Both the position numbers and the translations under genes were made by a program. Below are positions 5,119-22,389 of a stretch of 42,129 bases of DNA, piece after piece. The stretch lies in the UHGV virus genome UHGV-0179013. One strand, written 5' to 3'. Under the pieces are notes generated by a model. It did no database searches. It saw only the letters and a program-made list of their open reading frames with translations, and was not told the DNA's origin. Each line of letters starts with the position of its first letter. Position 1 is the first letter of the stretch. The DNA is from a virus.

Positions 5119-6200
5119 GTATTGAATCCCGCCAGGTTCTGGTAGAAGGCATATGGCTGAACGGCGAATGCTTCAGGCGGCATCAGCGTCATGCGTGCAT
5201 GGGTGCCGTAGTCATCGCGCATATAGGTGACTTCTGCCAGTAGCAATTCAGTCTCCGGCAACCGTAAGGTGGGAAGATCAACGGGGATCAATGTGTTTGG
5301 TTCCCACAGTTTCCCGTCTTTATCCCGCCAGGAATCGATGGTTACCGAGAGCTGTTTTGAACGTCCGTACCGCCGGTTCATTTCCCAGTCGATCGCACTT
5401 TGTGCCTGTTGAGTAGCCATCAGGGTACTTTCCACAATCGATATATGTTTTCGGTACCGCATACGGGCGGCCTCCGGATCTCTCGCCGTTGCCAGAGTCA
5501 CAGCGTCATAGGCCGTATCAGGCGAATACCCTGCAATTGGAGAAACGCTCATTGATACACCGACATAATCTGAAAACCTGTCAGCCATCGATTTGCGGTA
5601 GTATGCCTGCTCGACATTTACCCCTTCGGCTATCCCACTCGCCGCACGACGTGTTCCCACCCGGGTCAGTAACAGGTTTCCATCGGGCTGATCGTAGTAA
5701 AGCAGAGCAGACCATCTGGCCACCCGATCGATGACTTCTTGCGGAGACTCACCCCAGTTCAGAGTGAACTGGGGTACCTTCACAAGCTCATCAACATCCG
5801 TGGTTACGGTGATGCCGTAGTAGGATGCCAGGCGAGAAGCAATTTCAAGTGCATTACTGGCATTAATGACGTTGTTAGGCCACTCAGCTGAGCAATCCAC
5901 CAGGTCCTGACATTTGCTCCTGCCCGTGGCGCGGACCTCATGGCGGGAGCGCGATAGTGCGGGTTCCCAGTCATCAACATATCCCGTCAGTGTCAGATCA
6001 TCTCCGATACGAACTTCACAAGACATTCCCTCTTCAACGAGTTGACGATCTTCGTTGCCAGGGAAGTAATCCATTAGCCCAAGATCGAAATCAGAGGGAA
6101 AACGCTCAATACCCCGCGTTACCCGGACAGAATCCCACCCCTCGATGATTTTGCCGTCGACCGTCAAAGAAACAACATCCAGATCGCTGTCTGCATTCAT
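5115..6200 (-). CDS. Baseplate hub / tail protein (Mu gp44-like, P2 gpD-like)
   Basis: 361 aa; synteny between DNA-circulation-like gene and V-like gene. Confidence 0.45.
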   Translation of the reverse strand: MNADSDLDVVSLTVDGKIIEGWDSVRVTRGIERFPSDFDLGLMDYFPGNEDRQLVEEGMSCEVRIGDDLTLTGYVDDWEPALSRSRHEVRATGRSKCQDLVDCSAEWPNNVINASNALEIASRLASYYGITVTTDVDELVKVPQFTLNWGESPQEVIDRVARWSALLYYDQPDGNLLLTRVGTRRAASGIAEGVNVEQAYYRKSMADRFSDYVGVSMSVSPIAGYSPDTAYDAVTLATARDPEAARMRYRKHISIVESTLMATQQAQSAIDWEMNRRYGRSKQLSVTIDSWRDKDGKLWEPNTLIPVDLPTLRLPETELLLAEVTYMRDDYGTHARMTLMPPEAFAVQPYAFYQNLAGFNT

Positions 6201-7597
6201 TGCCTCAGTACCTTCATGGTTGTCGGCATAAACGCCGGATGCGGTACGCGCGCTTCCTGTACCAGTTCATCTGCACGGGTGGCATCCTGGTATAATCGGT
6301 TTGCCAGCGTCAGCGCCGGAAGCGGCTGAGCGGTAGTAACCTGCAGAAGCTCGCTCAGACCAGAAGCACGCTCACTCATCGTAGAAAGGAATGCCGATCT
6401 GACGGCGAGAAGCGCGTTATACATATCATCGTCCGCGCGGTCTCCAGCCAGAACCAGCGCCGTATCAAGTTGCACAGAAACTCGTTGAGTTAACTCTTCT
6501 GCCTCGTCTGTACTGGCAGGTCTGGAGTCCGCAGCGGCACTGGTCATGGCACCAGTACATAGCACAACAATCAGCGTGCTCATGGTCGCCGAAATCGCTT
6601 TACTGCTGTCGGACTGCTGGTACTCCGTGCTGATTGAATTAGCCAGTTTTTCCAGCGCTGTAATTCGGTCATTAACGCTGCCGGCGCTGTTAAGAATTGC
6701 GTTTACCACGTCGGCGACGCCCTGGACAAACTCATCAGGGGTGTTGGAGCTGCTAAGCTGGCTCGACCTGTCGGTAACATTTTTCCGGTCCATTACCGAC
6801 TGGGCTGTTACCTTGTCAGCCAGTGCTCTCTCATCATCCACATCAGCAACTGACAATTTGCCAGCAACAGCAGAGGAACTACCGCCCACAGAGCCTTTAC
6901 TGTAACGTCCGTACCGGGTATTCCCGAACGTGGAGTTCAGGACATTACTGAGATTCGTTACCTGGCTGATGGTATTGTTAACCATGTTAGTCCAGAACGT
7001 GACCGTGCCTCTGATGGTGTTTATAGCCTGTGTGACACCGCGGATTTCACTTTTAACCCTGGCAATCGTACTCAGCACAGCAGTGCTTACCAGTTTCAGA
7101 TAGTTGGTTTTCACCGTGGCGCCTGCAACGGTACTGCCCGTGACGGCAAACACTTTAAGCCCTGATTCAATTGCCATCAGAGTAAATTCAAATACTCGCC
7201 CGTTCTCCATCGACCCGGAAATACGCAAACCATTCTCAGGGATGGAAACCGTTAATTCTCCCAGTGTAGGATGGACAAGCGTACCGCTTCCTTTTTTTTC
7301 ACAGGCAGCAATGAGCGACTGACGTTGAGTGATAACATCACCACCACCGTAAACCTGACTGTTCTGGATGATAAATCCGCGGAGAACAAAGCGCCGGGTT
7401 CCCCGACCAAGATCCTCTATCCAGGCCGTATCCCGATAAGGGTATTCATGTACAGCCTGACGTCTGCCGTGGCTACCTTCTTCCATCACCATGGCGAAAG
7501 GCACACCACGAAAGGAACTGGATCGTATTAATCCCCGCCAGTCATCGTTGTCACCGCCCCCCATCAGTGCAGTTATTGCATTCTGGATAATTGGCAT
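6197..7597 (-). CDS. Mu gp43-like DNA circulation protein (tail-associated)
   Basis: About 466 aa from ATG at 7597 with AGGAG RBS (ORF-track start at 7627 lies inside the terminator hairpin); position directly after the tape measure gene. Confidence 0.45.
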   Translation of the reverse strand: MPIIQNAITALMGGGDNDDWRGLIRSSSFRGVPFAMVMEEGSHGRRQAVHEYPYRDTAWIEDLGRGTRRFVLRGFIIQNSQVYGGGDVITQRQSLIAACEKKGSGTLVHPTLGELTVSIPENGLRISGSMENGRVFEFTLMAIESGLKVFAVTGSTVAGATVKTNYLKLVSTAVLSTIARVKSEIRGVTQAINTIRGTVTFWTNMVNNTISQVTNLSNVLNSTFGNTRYGRYSKGSVGGSSSAVAGKLSVADVDDERALADKVTAQSVMDRKNVTDRSSQLSSSNTPDEFVQGVADVVNAILNSAGSVNDRITALEKLANSISTEYQQSDSSKAISATMSTLIVVLCTGAMTSAAADSRPASTDEAEELTQRVSVQLDTALVLAGDRADDDMYNALLAVRSAFLSTMSERASGLSELLQVTTAQPLPALTLANRLYQDATRADELVQEARVPHPAFMPTTMKVLRQ

Positions 7598-7612
7598 CAG
7601 GTCTCCTGAAAT

Positions 7613-7634
7613 AAAAAAAACCGCCACCTGGCGG
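7613..7634 (-). terminator. Intrinsic terminator between tape measure gene and baseplate genes
   Basis: Hairpin CCGCCAGGTGGCGG followed on the minus strand by a run of 8 T. Confidence 0.6.
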
Positions 7635-7665
7635 TTACCGTATATACAATGACAGTTGAAAATGA

Positions 7666-9603
7666 TCAGTAAGACATGGGTAACGTTATTCTTCCGCCAT
7701 CTTCGGCGCTGTATTCCCTTCGCCCTCCCTTCCCGTCGATCATGGTGATCTCAAGTTTCAATTTTTGCTCAGCCATCGCACTCATGAAGGAGCGCGTAAT
7801 ATTATCGGTAAGGGTCTTATCTGGTCCCGAACGCTGCAACTCTGGCTGAATGATTCCGTCTCCAGAGGATTGTTCGTTCACCGGACTGTCAGGGAAAGCA
7901 TCACTTTTCCCTTGTTGTGTTCTGAGTATCGTGGGTTCTTGATCCACGCCGCGTGATCCAGAGATAATGTCATACCGCTGCTGGGCCAGCACATCCGGAT
8001 TTCTCTTCCCTGACCACCGATCATCAGTAATGGCGGTCTGGATGGCGTTTAGCAGTTGTTCCTCAGTATAAGGTTGTGCGCCATTCTCATGTTTAATCAT
8101 GGCTGCCATTATCGTTTTTAATGTTTCCGGATCGTGCAGATTTACTTGCTCTTTGGCTCCATATCCAGTGGCTTTTGAGACGGAGTCAATATATGCACGA
8201 GTCTTATTCTCTGATTGCGGAGCATAGGTATGAATAATCCCATCCAGAGTATTATTCCCCCTGTCACCATACAACATCAGCTGTCTCGCCATTGCAGTTC
8301 TTCCGTCGGCATCATTCGCAAAGGTAGAAAATCCGCCATTTTTACCCGTTGCGTTTGCTGCAACCCTCAAATTACCGGGATTATTATTTCTGAAGCCAAT
8401 TGCGTTATTCCTTGTTTCCCCGTAAGGAACATTGCCGCGTGCAACGTTGGATTGTGGCTGGCTGATAGCGGATAAGTCATTCTGCAATTGAATCGCAGAA
8501 TCGGTCGCGCGGTAATTCGCATCGTACCGCTTTCTTACAGCATCAGTCATGAAACCCGCGTCAACCTGCCCACGTTCACTGCGGGGTAAGCTGTTATAAA
8601 GTTCCTTATCGTTCTGAATGCGCCGTAGTTTCTCAGCATCATTGCTGTTGATAAAACCGAGAGCATGAGACAGCCCAGTAAAATCACCATTAGTGAACAG
8701 ATCGGTAACACCTTCAAGGCCGTCTTTGACTGAACCATCCGAAAGAATGGTCTTAAGTGCCTTGTTTTTTGAACGTTGCCACAGACCATCCCAGGATGCG
8801 CTGAGCTCATTCATCGTTCCATTGATGTCGCTTAGTTCTTTATTAAGTTCAGGATCAATTGTTAGCCCAAACTCATCAGATTTAGCCAGCAGCGTTTTCA
8901 TGCGCTCACCTTCACGCATTAACGCCAACATTTCTGGCGTCAGCCCAAGAGCATCCGCTACGGACTTTTGTTGCTCAGGCCGCAACGAAGGGAAGACACG
9001 AGCAATCTCCTGTAATGTTTTTAGCGTATCAACAGAACCATCATTGTTTTTCTGTATCTGGACACCAATTTGTGCGAGAGCACCGAGCACCTGACCATTA
9101 GCGCCACTGGCAGCTTCTTTCAGCGTCTTAGCCATGCCATCAATAGAAGCATTTGCGCTTTCACTATCAGCACCGAGGATGCGCATAGCTCCAGCAAGAC
9201 GAGAATAGTCGTCTACACGCATTCCAGCATTTTTTGATGAAACGTCCAGGTTATATGCCTCCCTGGACGCTTCACGAAAGCCATAGGCAACTTGTTTGAG
9301 ACCGTACCCGGCTGCACCAACAATACCTAGTGACCCGAGTTTACCAGATAGCTCCCCTACCATTTTCAATGGAGGGACTATATCCCCGATAAACTGCACG
9401 TTATCCCTGGCACTTTTGGACAAATTTTCAAAACGTGAAATAAAGCCATTCAGCCCGTCAACTGTCTCCTGTCCACCTAACTGAAGCCCTTCTTTAGTTT
9501 TATCAAGCTTAGGTTCAAGACCTCGGATAGCTTCATTAATACGGTCAATAACATCACTGACCTGATCATTAGCCACCAGCTCAAAATCAAAGACATTACT
9601 CAT
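7666..9603 (-). CDS. Tail tape measure protein
   Basis: 645 aa, largest tail gene, located between the frameshifted chaperone and baseplate genes; low-complexity Ala/Gly/Ser-rich segments. Confidence 0.65.
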   Translation of the reverse strand: MSNVFDFELVANDQVSDVIDRINEAIRGLEPKLDKTKEGLQLGGQETVDGLNGFISRFENLSKSARDNVQFIGDIVPPLKMVGELSGKLGSLGIVGAAGYGLKQVAYGFREASREAYNLDVSSKNAGMRVDDYSRLAGAMRILGADSESANASIDGMAKTLKEAASGANGQVLGALAQIGVQIQKNNDGSVDTLKTLQEIARVFPSLRPEQQKSVADALGLTPEMLALMREGERMKTLLAKSDEFGLTIDPELNKELSDINGTMNELSASWDGLWQRSKNKALKTILSDGSVKDGLEGVTDLFTNGDFTGLSHALGFINSNDAEKLRRIQNDKELYNSLPRSERGQVDAGFMTDAVRKRYDANYRATDSAIQLQNDLSAISQPQSNVARGNVPYGETRNNAIGFRNNNPGNLRVAANATGKNGGFSTFANDADGRTAMARQLMLYGDRGNNTLDGIIHTYAPQSENKTRAYIDSVSKATGYGAKEQVNLHDPETLKTIMAAMIKHENGAQPYTEEQLLNAIQTAITDDRWSGKRNPDVLAQQRYDIISGSRGVDQEPTILRTQQGKSDAFPDSPVNEQSSGDGIIQPELQRSGPDKTLTDNITRSFMSAMAEQKLKLEITMIDGKGGRREYSAEDGGRITLPMSY

Positions 9604-18302: not shown

Positions 18303-20432
18303 TTATTTCGGCAGGAGTTGCGATATTCGCTTACGTTTGACCGGCGCTGGTTCTTCAATAACCGCACCCGGCAGCTCGTAATTGATTTTTTCTTCCTGTC
18401 CAACTGGCGCTGGCAGGAACTTATCCGGATCGGCTTCGAGGTTGGCGGCCCGGACGTTGAGTTTTAACCCCATATGTTTGAGACCGCACAGCGCGGCATA
18501 GCTGTAAACGAGGCAGTCAAGCGCTTCGTTAGCTCGTCCTGGTATTGCTTCCCAGATACTGTACCGCTGCCCGGAAATGACTTTGTAAACCAGTCGCTCC
18601 GCCAGCAGCTGATTGAAGTACCCGAGATCGCGATCGTCAGGAAAATGCATATAACCCGCAGCGGCGGCGCCAGGTTTGGGTGGCTCAAGATGCAGGCGAC
18701 CGCGTATCACGTCTTTCGCTGAGTTAACCCCCAGAATGACAGGGCGGAAACTGGCTTTGCTTTTCGATGATGGTCGTTTGGTCGGCCAGACAGGATTGCG
18801 TTTGCCTCCCTGTGCAGACTCCCCCTTAATTGCCCAGACACGACGGCCAAGACGCTCTTTGGCGAATTCGTATACCTTCTGCGTATGGTGGCCGCCGGAG
18901 TCCATGCACGTTGCCATGATATTCAGGCCGCGCCCGTCACCACGTCGCCAGATCTGTTTCAGGTATGCATCCAGTCGCTTCCAGGGTTCTTCCGTCTCAA
19001 GGTCACCATAAATAACGTCATGCGCGACCGACCACGATTCTTCATCTCTCCCCCAGCCGGTGATCGTAATTTCGAAGCGATCGTCCTGGGTATCAACTCC
19101 AGCTGTTAACAATGCCACCCCGTCCGGAACGACGGCCGGAAATATTTCCCGGCGCGCCAGCAGAACATCAACAGGGAGCTGTTTCCCATGATTAGGTCGG
19201 TGCGGAAGCCCCATCTGGGTATTCCACCACGCCTGTTCCTTATCCGGATCGCCCTTCGCATCGATATATTTTTTCGCAATATCCGACGGCTTATCTTTTT
19301 GCCAGGGGCTGAAAAGCTTGGATGCCTGGTACCCCACGTGGTGGTTATCGACTGCCTCCTTTCCACAGGAGGGGCAGATTGCGCGATAGACCGCATGCCG
19401 TTCCGACTCTGACCATTGCCAGACCTTTTCAACGCTGCCCTCGTCTGCCGCCCGCCAGGCAAGGTCATAATCCATCAGCGGTGAGTGCCGCTCCCCGCAG
19501 CACTCAAATGGGCGCGTCTGATGCCATCGAATAGTTTGCAGAGCTCTGAGGCGCTGTCCTTCGGACCAGCCACTACCACAGCATTCGCAATAGAGCATCG
19601 CCGATTTAGTCAGGTGTTTATCTCCCTCTTTCGGCCACTGAACGTGTTTGAAAAAGTCGGGGAACTGGCGGTGGCCACAGTGCGGGCAAACCACAGATGC
19701 CCGGCGCTGATCGGAGTCGGCGTAGCTGTCAGCAATGCGGCTCTCATCCTCCACCGTCGGCGAACAGGCGCGTACAGACAGCCAGGTCAGGCCAAATGTC
19801 GCTGTACGCTCTTCGGCCAGCGCAATTGGATCGCCTTCGCGGGTTATCGGGTACTTGTCCACTTCATCCGCCAGCAGGACACGAATCGGACGACGCGCAA
19901 GGTTATCAGGGCTACCAGCACCCGCCAGCGCCAGAAATCCGCCAGTGAACGCCTTGTAAAGAATGGTTTCTTTCGAGCTTTTCTGTTTCGAATCACCGAT
20001 GATTTTACGCAGTACCGGCGTCACCCTTACCAGCGGGCTAATACGCTCTTTCGAAAACTGTTCAGCGGCTTCTTCTTTCGGCTGCAGCAGCAGTATCGGA
20101 CAAGGATCGAGGTGGGCAAAATAGCCAAAAAGGTTTTCCAGCAGTGCTGTCTTCATCAACTGGGTACAGCACATTACAGTGATGATATGAACCCCGGACT
20201 CCGTCGCGGCAAGCATCGGTCCGCGGGCAATTTCTACCGTCGATGTTTCCCAGTTTCCCGAAGTGCTCCCAGCCTCTTTTGCCAGCTTACGATAGTCATC
20301 TGCCCACTGCGGCACACTGATACGCGGCGGGGGTGTCCAGCCTTTGCGGACGCTTAATTCAAGACGCTCAATCTTCTGCCGGGTTAAACTCTGGCTCTCC
20401 GAGGACTGAGATGTGTTTGTGGACATGTTCAA
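18303..20432 (-). CDS. Terminase large subunit, lambda gpA family
   Basis: 709 aa; N-terminal WADDYRKL and C-terminal NEALDCLVYSYAALCGL parallel lambda A (EWADANYYL ... NEALDCFVYALAAL). Confidence 0.9.
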   Translation of the reverse strand: MNMSTNTSQSSESQSLTRQKIERLELSVRKGWTPPPRISVPQWADDYRKLAKEAGSTSGNWETSTVEIARGPMLAATESGVHIITVMCCTQLMKTALLENLFGYFAHLDPCPILLLQPKEEAAEQFSKERISPLVRVTPVLRKIIGDSKQKSSKETILYKAFTGGFLALAGAGSPDNLARRPIRVLLADEVDKYPITREGDPIALAEERTATFGLTWLSVRACSPTVEDESRIADSYADSDQRRASVVCPHCGHRQFPDFFKHVQWPKEGDKHLTKSAMLYCECCGSGWSEGQRLRALQTIRWHQTRPFECCGERHSPLMDYDLAWRAADEGSVEKVWQWSESERHAVYRAICPSCGKEAVDNHHVGYQASKLFSPWQKDKPSDIAKKYIDAKGDPDKEQAWWNTQMGLPHRPNHGKQLPVDVLLARREIFPAVVPDGVALLTAGVDTQDDRFEITITGWGRDEESWSVAHDVIYGDLETEEPWKRLDAYLKQIWRRGDGRGLNIMATCMDSGGHHTQKVYEFAKERLGRRVWAIKGESAQGGKRNPVWPTKRPSSKSKASFRPVILGVNSAKDVIRGRLHLEPPKPGAAAAGYMHFPDDRDLGYFNQLLAERLVYKVISGQRYSIWEAIPGRANEALDCLVYSYAALCGLKHMGLKLNVRAANLEADPDKFLPAPVGQEEKINYELPGAVIEEPAPVKRKRISQLLPK

Positions 20433-20937
20433 TCAGCACCTCTGTCATCCTGTCCGCCGGTACATCCAGATCAGCAGCCATTAGCGGCGCCACCCTGGAC
20501 GGCCAGTTAAGCCAGGCATCACGCTGTTGGCGAAAGGCGTTGAATAAAACCTCCTCGGCTGCTGTCAGCTCAATAAGCTGGCCGCTGTCTTTTTCATACT
20601 GCAGCTTTGCCTGCAGGGCCATGTAATTCTCGCGGATACGTCCCGCTTCCTCTCTCGAAAGATCTGCCCCTTCAGTGAGCATTATCTGGCGGACAGTTTT
20701 ATTGATTTCATCACCGTCATCATCGTTATCGCTAACGACGGGAGTTTTCTTTTTCTTCGCGTTCGAGGCGCGCGGGTCTTTGCCATCGCGGTTTTTCTTC
20801 AATGCCGCATCGCTGGCCTCTACGTCAATCAGGTCTCCGTCCATCACAATGAAGCGCCCGGCTTTAATCCACCGGCCAATTGTTTTGCGATCCACACCTG
20901 AATGTTGTGCGTACTGACTCTGGTTCATCGTGGTCAT
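20368..20937 (-). CDS. Terminase small subunit, lambda Nu1-like, N-terminal HTH
   Basis: 189 aa; N-terminal MNQSQYAQHSGVDRKTIGRWIKAG parallels Nu1 VNKKQLADIFGASIRTIQNWQEQG; upstream TGGGACA repeat array. Confidence 0.7.
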   Translation of the reverse strand: MTTMNQSQYAQHSGVDRKTIGRWIKAGRFIVMDGDLIDVEASDAALKKNRDGKDPRASNAKKKKTPVVSDNDDDGDEINKTVRQIMLTEGADLSREEAGRIRENYMALQAKLQYEKDSGQLIELTAAEEVLFNAFRQQRDAWLNWPSRVAPLMAADLDVPADRMTEVLIEHVHKHISVLGEPEFNPAED

Positions 20938-21084
20938 GGGACATCACCTGGGACATTTTCTGGGGTGGGACATTCGCCTGGGACATTTTCGCAATGTCCC
21001 ACCAGAATGTCCCACTGGAATAAACTGGAATAGCCAGAGCTGGCGAGGTGTCCGTAATGATCGCCAGAGGTGGGACATGGGACA
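20937..21084. repeat. cosB-like repeat array: six direct TGGGACA heptamers and two inverted TGTCCCA copies immediately upstream of the terminase small subunit gene
   Basis: TGGGACA at 20937, 20949, 20966, 20979, 21071, 21078; TGTCCCA at 20995 and 21008; the 14-mer CCTGGGACATTTTC occurs twice. Confidence 0.55.
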
Positions 21085-21227
21085 CAAATCTGAAAGTTGT
21101 AGCTAGGAAAACACCGCGGCGCGCAATGCCCGTACCTTACAAAAGTCTCAGGAAGGACCCATTTTTTTAATGGCTTCGACCATTCGCTCCGACTATGATT
21201 ATTCCTATTCAATACAAGGAGAATGTA

Positions 21228-21731
21228 ATGGGTAACAATATAATCAAAATAACTTTCGTAGCCGCAGTGCTGGCATCACCAATTGCTCATGCCCAGTGGG
21301 TAACTAATACTGAAGATGACCTTTTCTCTGGTGGTAAGAAAGCAATGATGCTTGGCGAGGTTTCATCCGACAATGGCGCCATTGTGTTTGACTGCACTAA
21401 AGAAAAGCTATCGGCGGCATACGTTGAAATGGATAAAAGCACCGAATCACTATCAGAGGTACCAATGGACCTGATAATGAAGGTCGACGGGAATACCGCA
21501 GCGAAGCTCGATGCTACCCTTTCAAGACGTAATGTTCAGAGCCTCCAGATTCAATCGGATGACACGGACCAACTAAAAACAGTGCTTAAGCAGCTTCAGG
21601 GGGCGAAATCCAAAGTGTTAGTTGGTGTGCAAACAAAGGATGGCGGAAACCAGCATTCCATGTCAGCCAATGTTTCTGGATCGACAACTGCAGTAAACAG
21701 CTTCATAAAAGCTTGCGAAATTAGCTTATAA
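21228..21731 (+). CDS. Secreted/periplasmic protein of unknown function (moron); Sec signal peptide
   Basis: ATG at 21228 with AAGGAG RBS; N-terminus MGNNIIKITFVAAVLASPIAHA-QW has n/h/c regions and an AHA cleavage motif; plus strand within a minus-strand late region; AT-rich. Confidence 0.6.
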   Translation: MGNNIIKITFVAAVLASPIAHAQWVTNTEDDLFSGGKKAMMLGEVSSDNGAIVFDCTKEKLSAAYVEMDKSTESLSEVPMDLIMKVDGNTAAKLDATLSRRNVQSLQIQSDDTDQLKTVLKQLQGAKSKVLVGVQTKDGGNQHSMSANVSGSTTAVNSFIKACEISL

Positions 21732-21741
21732 GTTACTGCTT

Positions 21742-22389
21742 TTATTTTGCCGTCCTGATGGCTTCTGCTATCGCCTGATTTAAAGCAGACGGTAGCAGTG
21801 CGTTCGCCATGGTATGGGACCTATCCATATACCCCAGCACTGGAGTCACAGGTAGCGCATCACCAAACCGGATCAAAAGCTTTGGAGAACGCTGTTTGCG
21901 TTTCGGTCTTCGCGTCCCGTTAGCGGAACGTTTGGCCCGTCGCTTCTTAGCTTTCATCGGCTTCTTACGCTGCCAGACAGCGTTAACGCCATCAACCTCA
22001 CCTACGAATACATTTTCCTTTGTTTTAAGCTGTGAGAGCTTATTACGCGGCATGTTGCCGTATTTGTTTAGCTTAACGTTCTTGGGATTTAATAGAGCCT
22101 GGCTATTGAGCTTGTGCTCTCCGCCAAACTCGAATGGTTCCAGATAACCAGCAGCGGTATCGCGGACAAAAACCTTTGCGGTCAGATTGTTCTTTCTTGC
22201 CGCCACCGAACCAACTGATTTAACGGTAAACGGCGTGGGGCTCTCCAGATGTCGTTCGAATGCCGTCTTCTGAGCCAACTCAATCTGGCGTACAACTTTT
22301 GTCATCGCCTGAGCTGTGGCAAACGGGATTTGCTTTTGCAGTTGCTTTAACTGGTTTGATAAATCCTTCAGTGTTGCCATATCAGTCAC
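21742..22389 (-). CDS. Hypothetical phage protein with basic Lys/Arg-rich C-terminal region
   Basis: 215 aa ORF; KKPMKAKKRRAKRSANGTRRPKRKQRSPK tract; function not recognised. Confidence 0.4.
   Translation of the reverse strand: MTDMATLKDLSNQLKQLQKQIPFATAQAMTKVVRQIELAQKTAFERHLESPTPFTVKSVGSVAARKNNLTAKVFVRDTAAGYLEPFEFGGEHKLNSQALLNPKNVKLNKYGNMPRNKLSQLKTKENVFVGEVDGVNAVWQRKKPMKAKKRRAKRSANGTRRPKRKQRSPKLLIRFGDALPVTPVLGYMDRSHTMANALLPSALNQAIAEAIRTAK

Follow-up and report, generated by a model that had tools for sequence, protein, structure and literature searches.

A candidate lambda-type cos site built of TGTCCCA repeats beside the small terminase gene of an Escherichia coli prophage

What is a dense array of seven-base repeats doing directly upstream of a terminase gene? 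The question is raised by the viral genome UHGV-0179013, a stretch of 42,129 nucleotides (nt) that was analysed as a whole and is called the window below, in which the repeats occupy positions 20937-21084 and begin at the start codon of terS, the gene for the small terminase subunit TerS. A sequence-only reading of the window had proposed a cosB-like packaging site, and our analysis points the same way: the region 20937-21160 is very probably the cos site of a lambda-type cohesive-end prophage, with cosQ, cosN, cosB and terS following one another in that order on the minus strand, and the heptamers would be its cosB, recognized by the N-terminal domain of TerS. An element of this kind is ordinary; its recognition sequence, TGTCCCA, is new and apparently undescribed. 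Searching the literature for the heptamers in combination with 'terminase', or for the 12-mer of the predicted cohesive end, turned up only the paper on Serratia phage vB_SspM_BZS1 (hereafter BZS1), which does not mention cosB (PMC7556043). The argument is built on the layout of the site, its conservation, a 12-mer identical to the mapped end of a relative, and a repeat that co-varies with the N-terminal domain of TerS; from these we infer physical binding, its stoichiometry, DNA bending and the nick positions in the window prophage.

Layout and conservation of the heptamer array

An exact-match search of both strands returned 11 copies of TGGGACA in the window, eight of them inside 20937-21084 and three elsewhere. 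Within the array, six copies start on the plus strand (20937, 20949, 20966, 20979, 21071 and 21078) and two on the minus strand (20995 and 21008), just the six direct TGGGACA and two inverted TGTCCCA copies within 148 bp of the start codon that had been read from the letters. The 14-mer CCTGGGACATTTTC, also described in that reading as exactly duplicated, was found at 20947-20960 and again at 20977-20990, against an expectation of 0. Dinucleotide-preserving shuffles give 5.14 heptamers per window, or 0.018 per 148 bp, and the Poisson probability of eight or more in 148 bp is 2.8e-19 (about 1e-14 when corrected for every start position), which bears out the claim of a density far above chance. 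The copies share an extended consensus of roughly (G/C)(G/T)TGGGACAT(T). Counted from the predicted left cohesive end, the four heptamers of the distal cluster stand at +187, +175, +158 and +145; the first of these, the last copy in the terS sense, has one base in common with the terS start codon, a T that on the coding strand is the A of its ATG, and an AGGTGA ribosome-binding site lies between the last two copies. The inverted pair and the two direct heptamers next to it form a 23-nt imperfect palindrome (20965-20987 / 20993-21015) that is 87% complementary.

A footprint alignment of 62 distinct TGTCCCA-class sequences separates the repeats from their surroundings. Heptamer columns are 80% invariant, with a mean majority frequency of 0.994, as compared with 33% of the columns between heptamers and 34% of the 56-bp spacer; in terS, codon positions 1, 2 and 3 are 89%, 93% and 20% invariant, respectively. 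Conservation of the heptamers is about that of first and second codon positions, and as units the repeats are subject to purifying selection. In E. coli HS and D53-1, all eight heptamers are kept at 82-85% DNA identity, and the spacers diverge. An origin of the array by chance or by recent local duplication, without any function, has next to no probability: the repeat scan does contain local duplications of 13 bp and 30 bp (D1 and D3), yet a P of about 3e-19 and the retention of eight copies amid diverging spacers effectively refute it.

Within the variable spacer, a doubled ACTGGAATA (21014-21022 and 21024-21032, TATTCCnnTTTATTCCAG on the terS-sense strand, repeat family D7) is conserved, as is a GATC at 21058-21061. 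The doubled element adjoins the inverted pair, at the place of the lambda integration host factor (IHF) site I1; neither it nor the GATC contains a match to the IHF consensus.

The predicted cohesive end and the lambda plan

The sequence-only reading had suggested looking for a nearby nick site with cohesive ends, and a candidate cosN was found 33 bp beyond the last heptamer. An 81-bp query taken just beyond the array matched Citrobacter phage phiNP and the first 38 bp of the BZS1 record, the first 12 bp of which are annotated 'cosL'. BZS1 virions have 5' cohesive ends with the 12-nt overhang GCATTGCGCGCC, which was determined with PhageTerm and checked by comparing virion-end sequences with a polymerase chain reaction product across the prophage cos (PMC7556043). 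The same 12-mer occurs a single time in the window, and the nicks would by this match fall between 21130 and 21129 on the terS-sense strand and between 21118 and 21117 on the opposite strand. On the far side of cosN, the block AAAAAAATGGGTCCTTCC is common to the window, BZS1 and phiNP. It holds a heptamer, GGGTCCT, that resembles cosQ, a highly conserved 7-bp termination signal (PMC4669245), and GGGTCC is retained in all the repeat classes described below.

Both elements recur in relatives. The exact 12-mer is present in 78 of 80 IMG/VR loci, with GGGTCCT upstream and at a constant distance to terS; these loci, which are close relatives, were retrieved by TerS similarity alone, so the conservation of cosN among them is non-circular. 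BZS1 and phiNP are the closest sequenced phages. A near-identity DNA search against sequenced phages gave no match, and only distant TerS matches were found, those of BZS1 and phiNP among them. They share with the window the cosN 12-mer, the cosQ block and the gene order, and their TerS proteins are homologous (28-31% identity in full-length alignment), but they carry a TerS N-terminal domain of another class, GGTAACA, and a short form of cosB.

In phage P1, multi-copy short repeats, the pac hexamers, flank the cut site. Repeats of this sort also flank the cut site in pac phages such as SPP1 (PMC4669245), and the array might likewise direct headful packaging as a pac site, in which case the first cut would be imprecise and the virion DNA permuted and terminally redundant. 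We regard this as very improbable, given that the large terminase subunit, TerL, is of the gpA type with both lambda-type domains (Table 1), as the sequence-only reading had supposed, and that BZS1 has defined 12-nt 5' cohesive ends, the exact 12-mer and the cosQ heptamer being conserved beside the array.

The alternative of a cos site can be compared directly with lambda, whose ends we read from NC_001416 and whose R core we took as CGTTTCC. In known systems, cosB is the region bound by TerS, with R2 opposite in orientation to R3 and R1 and with a critical spacing between cosN and cosB (Feiss et al., PMC4669245, PMC9026076); R3 occupies bp 50-65 in lambda and bp 48-60 in N15 (PMC9026076). Lambda has GGGTCCT at 48473-48479, that is -30 to -24 from the nick, as compared with -31 to -25 in the window, and the flanks of cosN are alike (AGGTTACG|..12..|CGCGGGTTTTCGCTA in lambda, AGGTACGG|..12..|GCGGTGTTTTCCTAGCTA in the window). 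Beyond cosN, lambda CGTTTCC is found at +53 (R3), inverted at +114 (R2, GGAAACG) and at +155 (R1), and the ATG of Nu1 at +191; TGTCCCA in the window is found direct at +46 and +53, inverted at +116 and +129 and direct again at +145, +158, +175 and +187, with the ATG at +193. As judged by this alignment of positions, the array has the location of a cosB and its orientation pattern of R3, inverted R2 and R1. Lambda and the window also have in common a gpA-type TerL, a terS gene immediately downstream of cos and a 12-nt 5' cohesive end, which in the window is predicted. They differ in the sequence of that end (GCATTGCGCGCC in the window, GGGCGGCGACCT in lambda), in the repeat core (TGTCCCA versus CGTTTCC) and in the tail module, which in the window is Mu-like myoviral, unlike that of lambda.

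Table 1. Features of the candidate cos region and adjoining packaging genes in the window. Sites with a plus sign are counted from the predicted left cohesive end, those with a minus sign from the nick.
Feature	Position	Strand	Description
terL, gpA-type large terminase	18303..20426/20432	-	PF05876 (2e-64) and PF20454 (3e-78), ATPase and endonuclease domains; RefSeq annotation in L001
terS, small terminase, 189 amino acids	20368..20937	-	PHROG 57 terminase small subunit, 4.6e-36
Candidate cosB distal cluster, R1-like	20937..20985	-	Four direct TGTCCCA in the terS sense: 20937-43, 20949-55, 20966-72, 20979-85
Candidate cosB inverted pair, R2-like	20995..21014	-	Opposite-orientation heptamers 20995-21001 (+129) and 21008-21014 (+116)
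Spacer, inverted pair to proximal pair	21015..21070	-	Mostly variable; holds doubled ACTGGAATA and GATC
Candidate cosB proximal tandem pair, R3-like	21071..21084	-	TGTCCCATGTCCCA, +46 to +59
cosN-to-cosB linker, conserved	21085..21117	-	GCGGTGTTTTCCTAGCTACAACTTTCAGATTTG; resembles lambda CGCGGGTTTTCGCTATTTATGAAAATTTTC
cosN cohesive end, predicted	21118..21129	-	5'-GCATTGCGCGCC-3' in the terS sense; equals the mapped BZS1 overhang
cosQ-like heptamer GGGTCCT	21154..21160	-	-31 to -25; within conserved block AAAAAAATGGGTCCTTCC

Co-variation of the repeats with the N-terminal domain of TerS

The strongest evidence comes from relatives in which the repeat has changed. In the E. coli prophage L002, TerL is 92% identical to that of the window, the cosQ/cosN block is near-identical, and the last ~75 residues of TerS are ~97% identical; the N-terminal domain of TerS is different, and so is the repeat. 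L002 carries GGTAACA/TGTTACC in the same layout, its tandem pair standing at +47/+54, its inverted pair at +122/+134 and its direct copies between +152 and +189, ahead of an ATG at +196. BZS1 and phiNP, which have the L002 type of TerS N-terminal domain, also have GGTAACA. Scanning IMG/VR viral contigs for the cosN 15-mer yielded 66 distinct cos-to-terS sequences, in which at least eight repeat classes stand on the shared 15-mer, each paired with its own TerS N-terminus: TGTCCCA, GGTAACA, GGTAACG, GGTAAGG, GGTTTCA, TGTTCGC(AC), TGTCCGC(AC) and TTCACAC. In 19 of 19 representative loci drawn from eight classes, the start of the first repeat falls within +45 to +48, and nearly all exact copies of the class repeat at each locus fall in the cos-to-terS region.

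Natural chimeras locate the part of TerS that goes with the repeat. Over the N-terminal 50 residues, identity is 70-74% within a repeat class and 50-54% between classes, whereas over the C-terminal 65 residues it reaches 97% and 68% across classes and drops to 11-17% within a class. Sequence comparison thus shows the repeat following the N-terminal 50 residues of TerS independently of the C-terminus, the part predicted to bind TerL. Together with a cosQ at the lambda distance and the R3/inverted R2/R1 plan, this co-variation supports the cosB-like reading. The modular logic is that of lambda and phage 21, which have the same cosQ and cosN but a different cosB and a different TerS recognition helix (PMC4669245), much as the window and L002 do; in the family studied here, specificity is deduced from sequence and spans at least eight repeat classes, versus two or three for lambda and 21.

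A different protein might bind the heptamers, with TerS recognizing something else. The gene for a 215-amino-acid product on the other side of cos is always adjacent to it in this family, a host nucleoid protein is a second candidate, and binding by TerS itself rests on sequence co-variation. We nevertheless think this very unlikely, because the 215-amino-acid protein of TGTCCCA prophages has 81% identity to that of GGTAACA prophages, the differences being spread evenly, because what changes along with the repeat is the N-terminal domain of TerS, and because no host factor can account for eight different repeat sequences among enterobacterial hosts. The 215-amino-acid gene was also considered as a specificity determinant in its own right and rejected, there being no module swap in it at that level of identity.

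If TerS reads the heptamers, its N-terminus should be where it does so. An AlphaFold2 model of TerS built with 30 homologues (mean predicted local distance difference test score, pLDDT, 70; about 75 in the N-terminal domain) runs strand, helix 6-13, helix 17-25, hairpin 31-38 and helix 39-50, followed by a disordered basic/acidic linker (52-75) and then long helices. Residues ~3-50 are predicted to form a winged helix-turn-helix, and the helical part to serve oligomerization and TerL binding. Foldseek searches of the PDB placed Pukovnik Xis, BldC, the gpNu1 DNA-binding domain (1J9I) and RacA at the top, none with E below 0.1, the match to 1J9I having a template modelling (TM) score of 0.50 and a root mean square deviation of 2.9 Å over 55 columns. 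The recognition helix and wing of lambda gpNu1 span residues 17-24 and 31-39 (PMC9026076); the helix and wing of the TerS model coincide with these positions, and the predicted recognition helix of window TerS is at ~17-25. The model is consistent with a Nu1-like domain, and stops short of proving one. The sequence-only reading had called the gene 'Nu1-like', which holds by position and, weakly, by predicted fold, but not by Pfam, in which TerS has no Phage_Nu1 match. Any label of Nu1 family membership was therefore dropped in favour of the weak fold-level comparison, neither a Pfam nor a profile match having been obtained: at an E cut-off of 0.001 Pfam gives no family for TerS, the only matches being generic helix-turn-helix ones, sub-threshold at E up to 1, and a nine-sequence TerS profile searched against PDB sequences returned noise only, without gpNu1.

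On this model, several DNA-binding domains of a terminase oligomer would sit on the R3-equivalent proximal pair at +46 to +59 as well as on the inverted and direct copies between +116 and +193, bending or wrapping ~150 bp of DNA. The assembly would position the gpA-type TerL to make staggered nicks 12 nt apart at 21118-21129, after which terminase would stay on the cosB-bearing left end and dock on the portal, packaging in the direction terS, terL, portal until GGGTCCT at -31 of the downstream cos terminated the process.

Several points weigh against a lambda-type cos site with TerS-bound repeats. TerS has no match to Phage_Nu1 (PF07471) and no detectable sequence relation to gpNu1, and the likeness of its N-terminal fold is weak (Foldseek E of 0.2-0.7, on a model with pLDDT ~75). 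The cohesive end is transferred from BZS1, whose TerS has an overall identity of only ~30%, and in the set scanned by DNA pattern the conservation of cosN is circular, the 15-mer having been required. The IMG/VR contig L180 (3300037466_000051, GGTAAGG class) starts one base before the BZS1 cohesive end, which leaves the nick position uncertain by one base. The window has eight 7-bp cores, several in abutting or 12-13-bp-spaced pairs, where lambda has three 16-bp sites, and no match to the IHF consensus WATCAANNNNTTR at one mismatch or fewer was found on either strand of 20900-21200, where the same scan of lambda gave a one-mismatch hit at about +79; with no IHF consensus and eight 7-bp cores, the lambda bending model may therefore not carry over.

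As to L180 itself, this 13,890-bp contig begins exactly at GGCATTGCGCGCC (GGCATT...). Such a start fits a physical DNA end at the cos of the family and is suggestive only.

Should the cos reading hold, it would assign a function to an unannotated 225-bp stretch and to a 'hypothetical protein' of ~1% of complete E. coli genomes, the same 'hypothetical protein' that occurs in many Klebsiella, Raoultella, Citrobacter, Yersinia and Serratia prophages, and the cosN assignment would predict the virion ends of prophages with this TerS family. The lambda cos plan (cosQ at -30, a site at the R3 position, an inverted R2, R1, and an ATG at ~+190) would then reach phages whose TerS and cohesive ends are not recognizably lambda-like. 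With at least eight repeat classes on one cosN, the natural chimeras are material for learning how small terminases read DNA, and the classes bear on which satellites a given helper could mobilize; current understanding is not overturned. In essentially all NCBI and UniRef records, TerS of this family is named 'hypothetical protein', with no precomputed Pfam domain, and the family is widespread, being found in Escherichia, Klebsiella, Raoultella, Citrobacter, Yersinia, Serratia, Cedecea and Pectobacterium.

Long and short forms, a satellite-like island and neighbouring genes

The site occurs in two arrangements. In the long form, seen in the window and L002, all sites lie upstream of an ATG at ~+193. 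In the short form, seen in BZS1, phiNP and many others, the ATG comes as early as +55 to +80, one to three sites lie at +45 to +67, and terS itself contains another four to seven, of both orientations, 170-260 bp away. These forms parallel the two cosB types of Feiss et al. (PMC4669245). The 'complex' type is that of lambda, 21 and Monarch; in the 'simple' type, that of N15, R3 is supplemented only by an accessory inverted site, rR2, within the TerS gene. The short form departs from N15 in having multiple intragenic sites where N15 has a single rR2.

The intragenic sites of the short form (L096 at ~7590-7690, L008, L180 and L205) encode the flexible, low-complexity linker of TerS, with GGTAACA giving GNK or GNR, GGTAAGG giving GKG, and TGCGAACA giving ANT or ANS. 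The linker sequence in the short form is dictated by the protein's own predicted DNA-binding sites.

A cos module is also found with no terS or terL after it. An island of E. coli 2015C-4136CT1 (L003 3850-4100 / L209; NZ_CP027550.1, ~1,657,900-1,674,000) contains GGGTCCTTCC, GGGCATTGCGCGAG and TAGCTA followed by ~10 copies of TGTCCCA/TGGGACA in the same two-cluster layout. The module stands at the end of the island, which is ~17 kb long, lies in the thiM-rcnR interval, is carried by three E. coli genomes and encodes an integrase, a DNA primase family protein, an Icd-like protein, SSB, ProQ/FinO and PerC. It looks like a phage satellite that has copied the packaging site of TGTCCCA-class helpers. 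A second candidate satellite, L187 (IMG/VR 3300031419_000557, 5253-7529), was rejected as an uninformative prophage with terminase and head genes missing; there, cosN and a TGTCCCA array lead directly into tail sheath and baseplate genes, apparently in a deletion derivative.

These arrangements bear on whether the heptamers could instead be operators through which TerS or another regulator controls the transcription or translation of terS and the late operon. In favour of this, the ribosome-binding site is flanked by two copies, the second of which runs into the terS ATG, every class has a heptamer abutting the ATG, and the fold of the N-terminal domain resembles those of the regulators Xis, MerR and BldC. 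Against this, the first repeat is fixed relative to cosN while the ATG ranges from +55 to +242, short-form relatives have most copies ~200 bp inside the open reading frame, and the satellite-like island, which has no terminase gene, retains the array although it offers no downstream terS for regulation. Nor was a sigma-70-like promoter found in 20800-21800, and promoter, terminator and Rfam scans of the array region were empty or gave noise, lending no support to an operator or an RNA element. Control in place of packaging is thus unlikely, though it may be a secondary role beside that of cosB, for instance autoregulation through the copy that overlaps the start codon.

Going further than a single cos site, one might tentatively see here a large undescribed terminase/cos family, in which one cosQ/cosN is combined with many interchangeable pairs of TerS domain and heptamer, DNA is wrapped without IHF through 5-10 short sites, some of them shaping the TerS linker, and satellites copy the array of their helper. 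We consider this possible but rather doubtful; if true, it would provide a natural recognition-code panel for TerS-DNA specificity and for the matching of satellites to helpers.

The window itself is a prophage of E. coli. Its counterpart in strain MLI104K1 is 99.6% identical, and 59-63 of the 5,426 complete E. coli genomes (~1%) contain the prophage. Its packaging genes are all on the minus strand, terL overlapping the 3' end of terS, and are followed by gpW, a lambda-family portal, an S49 protease, a decoration protein, the major capsid protein and a Mu-like contractile tail. On the other side of cos, homology to HS, D53-1 and ECCTRSRTH03 ends at 21161, and the inserted region 21162-21741 holds a plus-strand open reading frame (21195/21229..21731, 167-178 amino acids; PHROG 19473, function not assigned) with a signal-peptide-like N-terminus, MGNNIIKITFVAAVLASPIAHA. 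This divergent reading frame was rejected as the target of the array, because the insertion at ~21161 is absent from relatives that keep the array. It is a moron between cos and the conserved 215-amino-acid gene, antisense to the late transcript.

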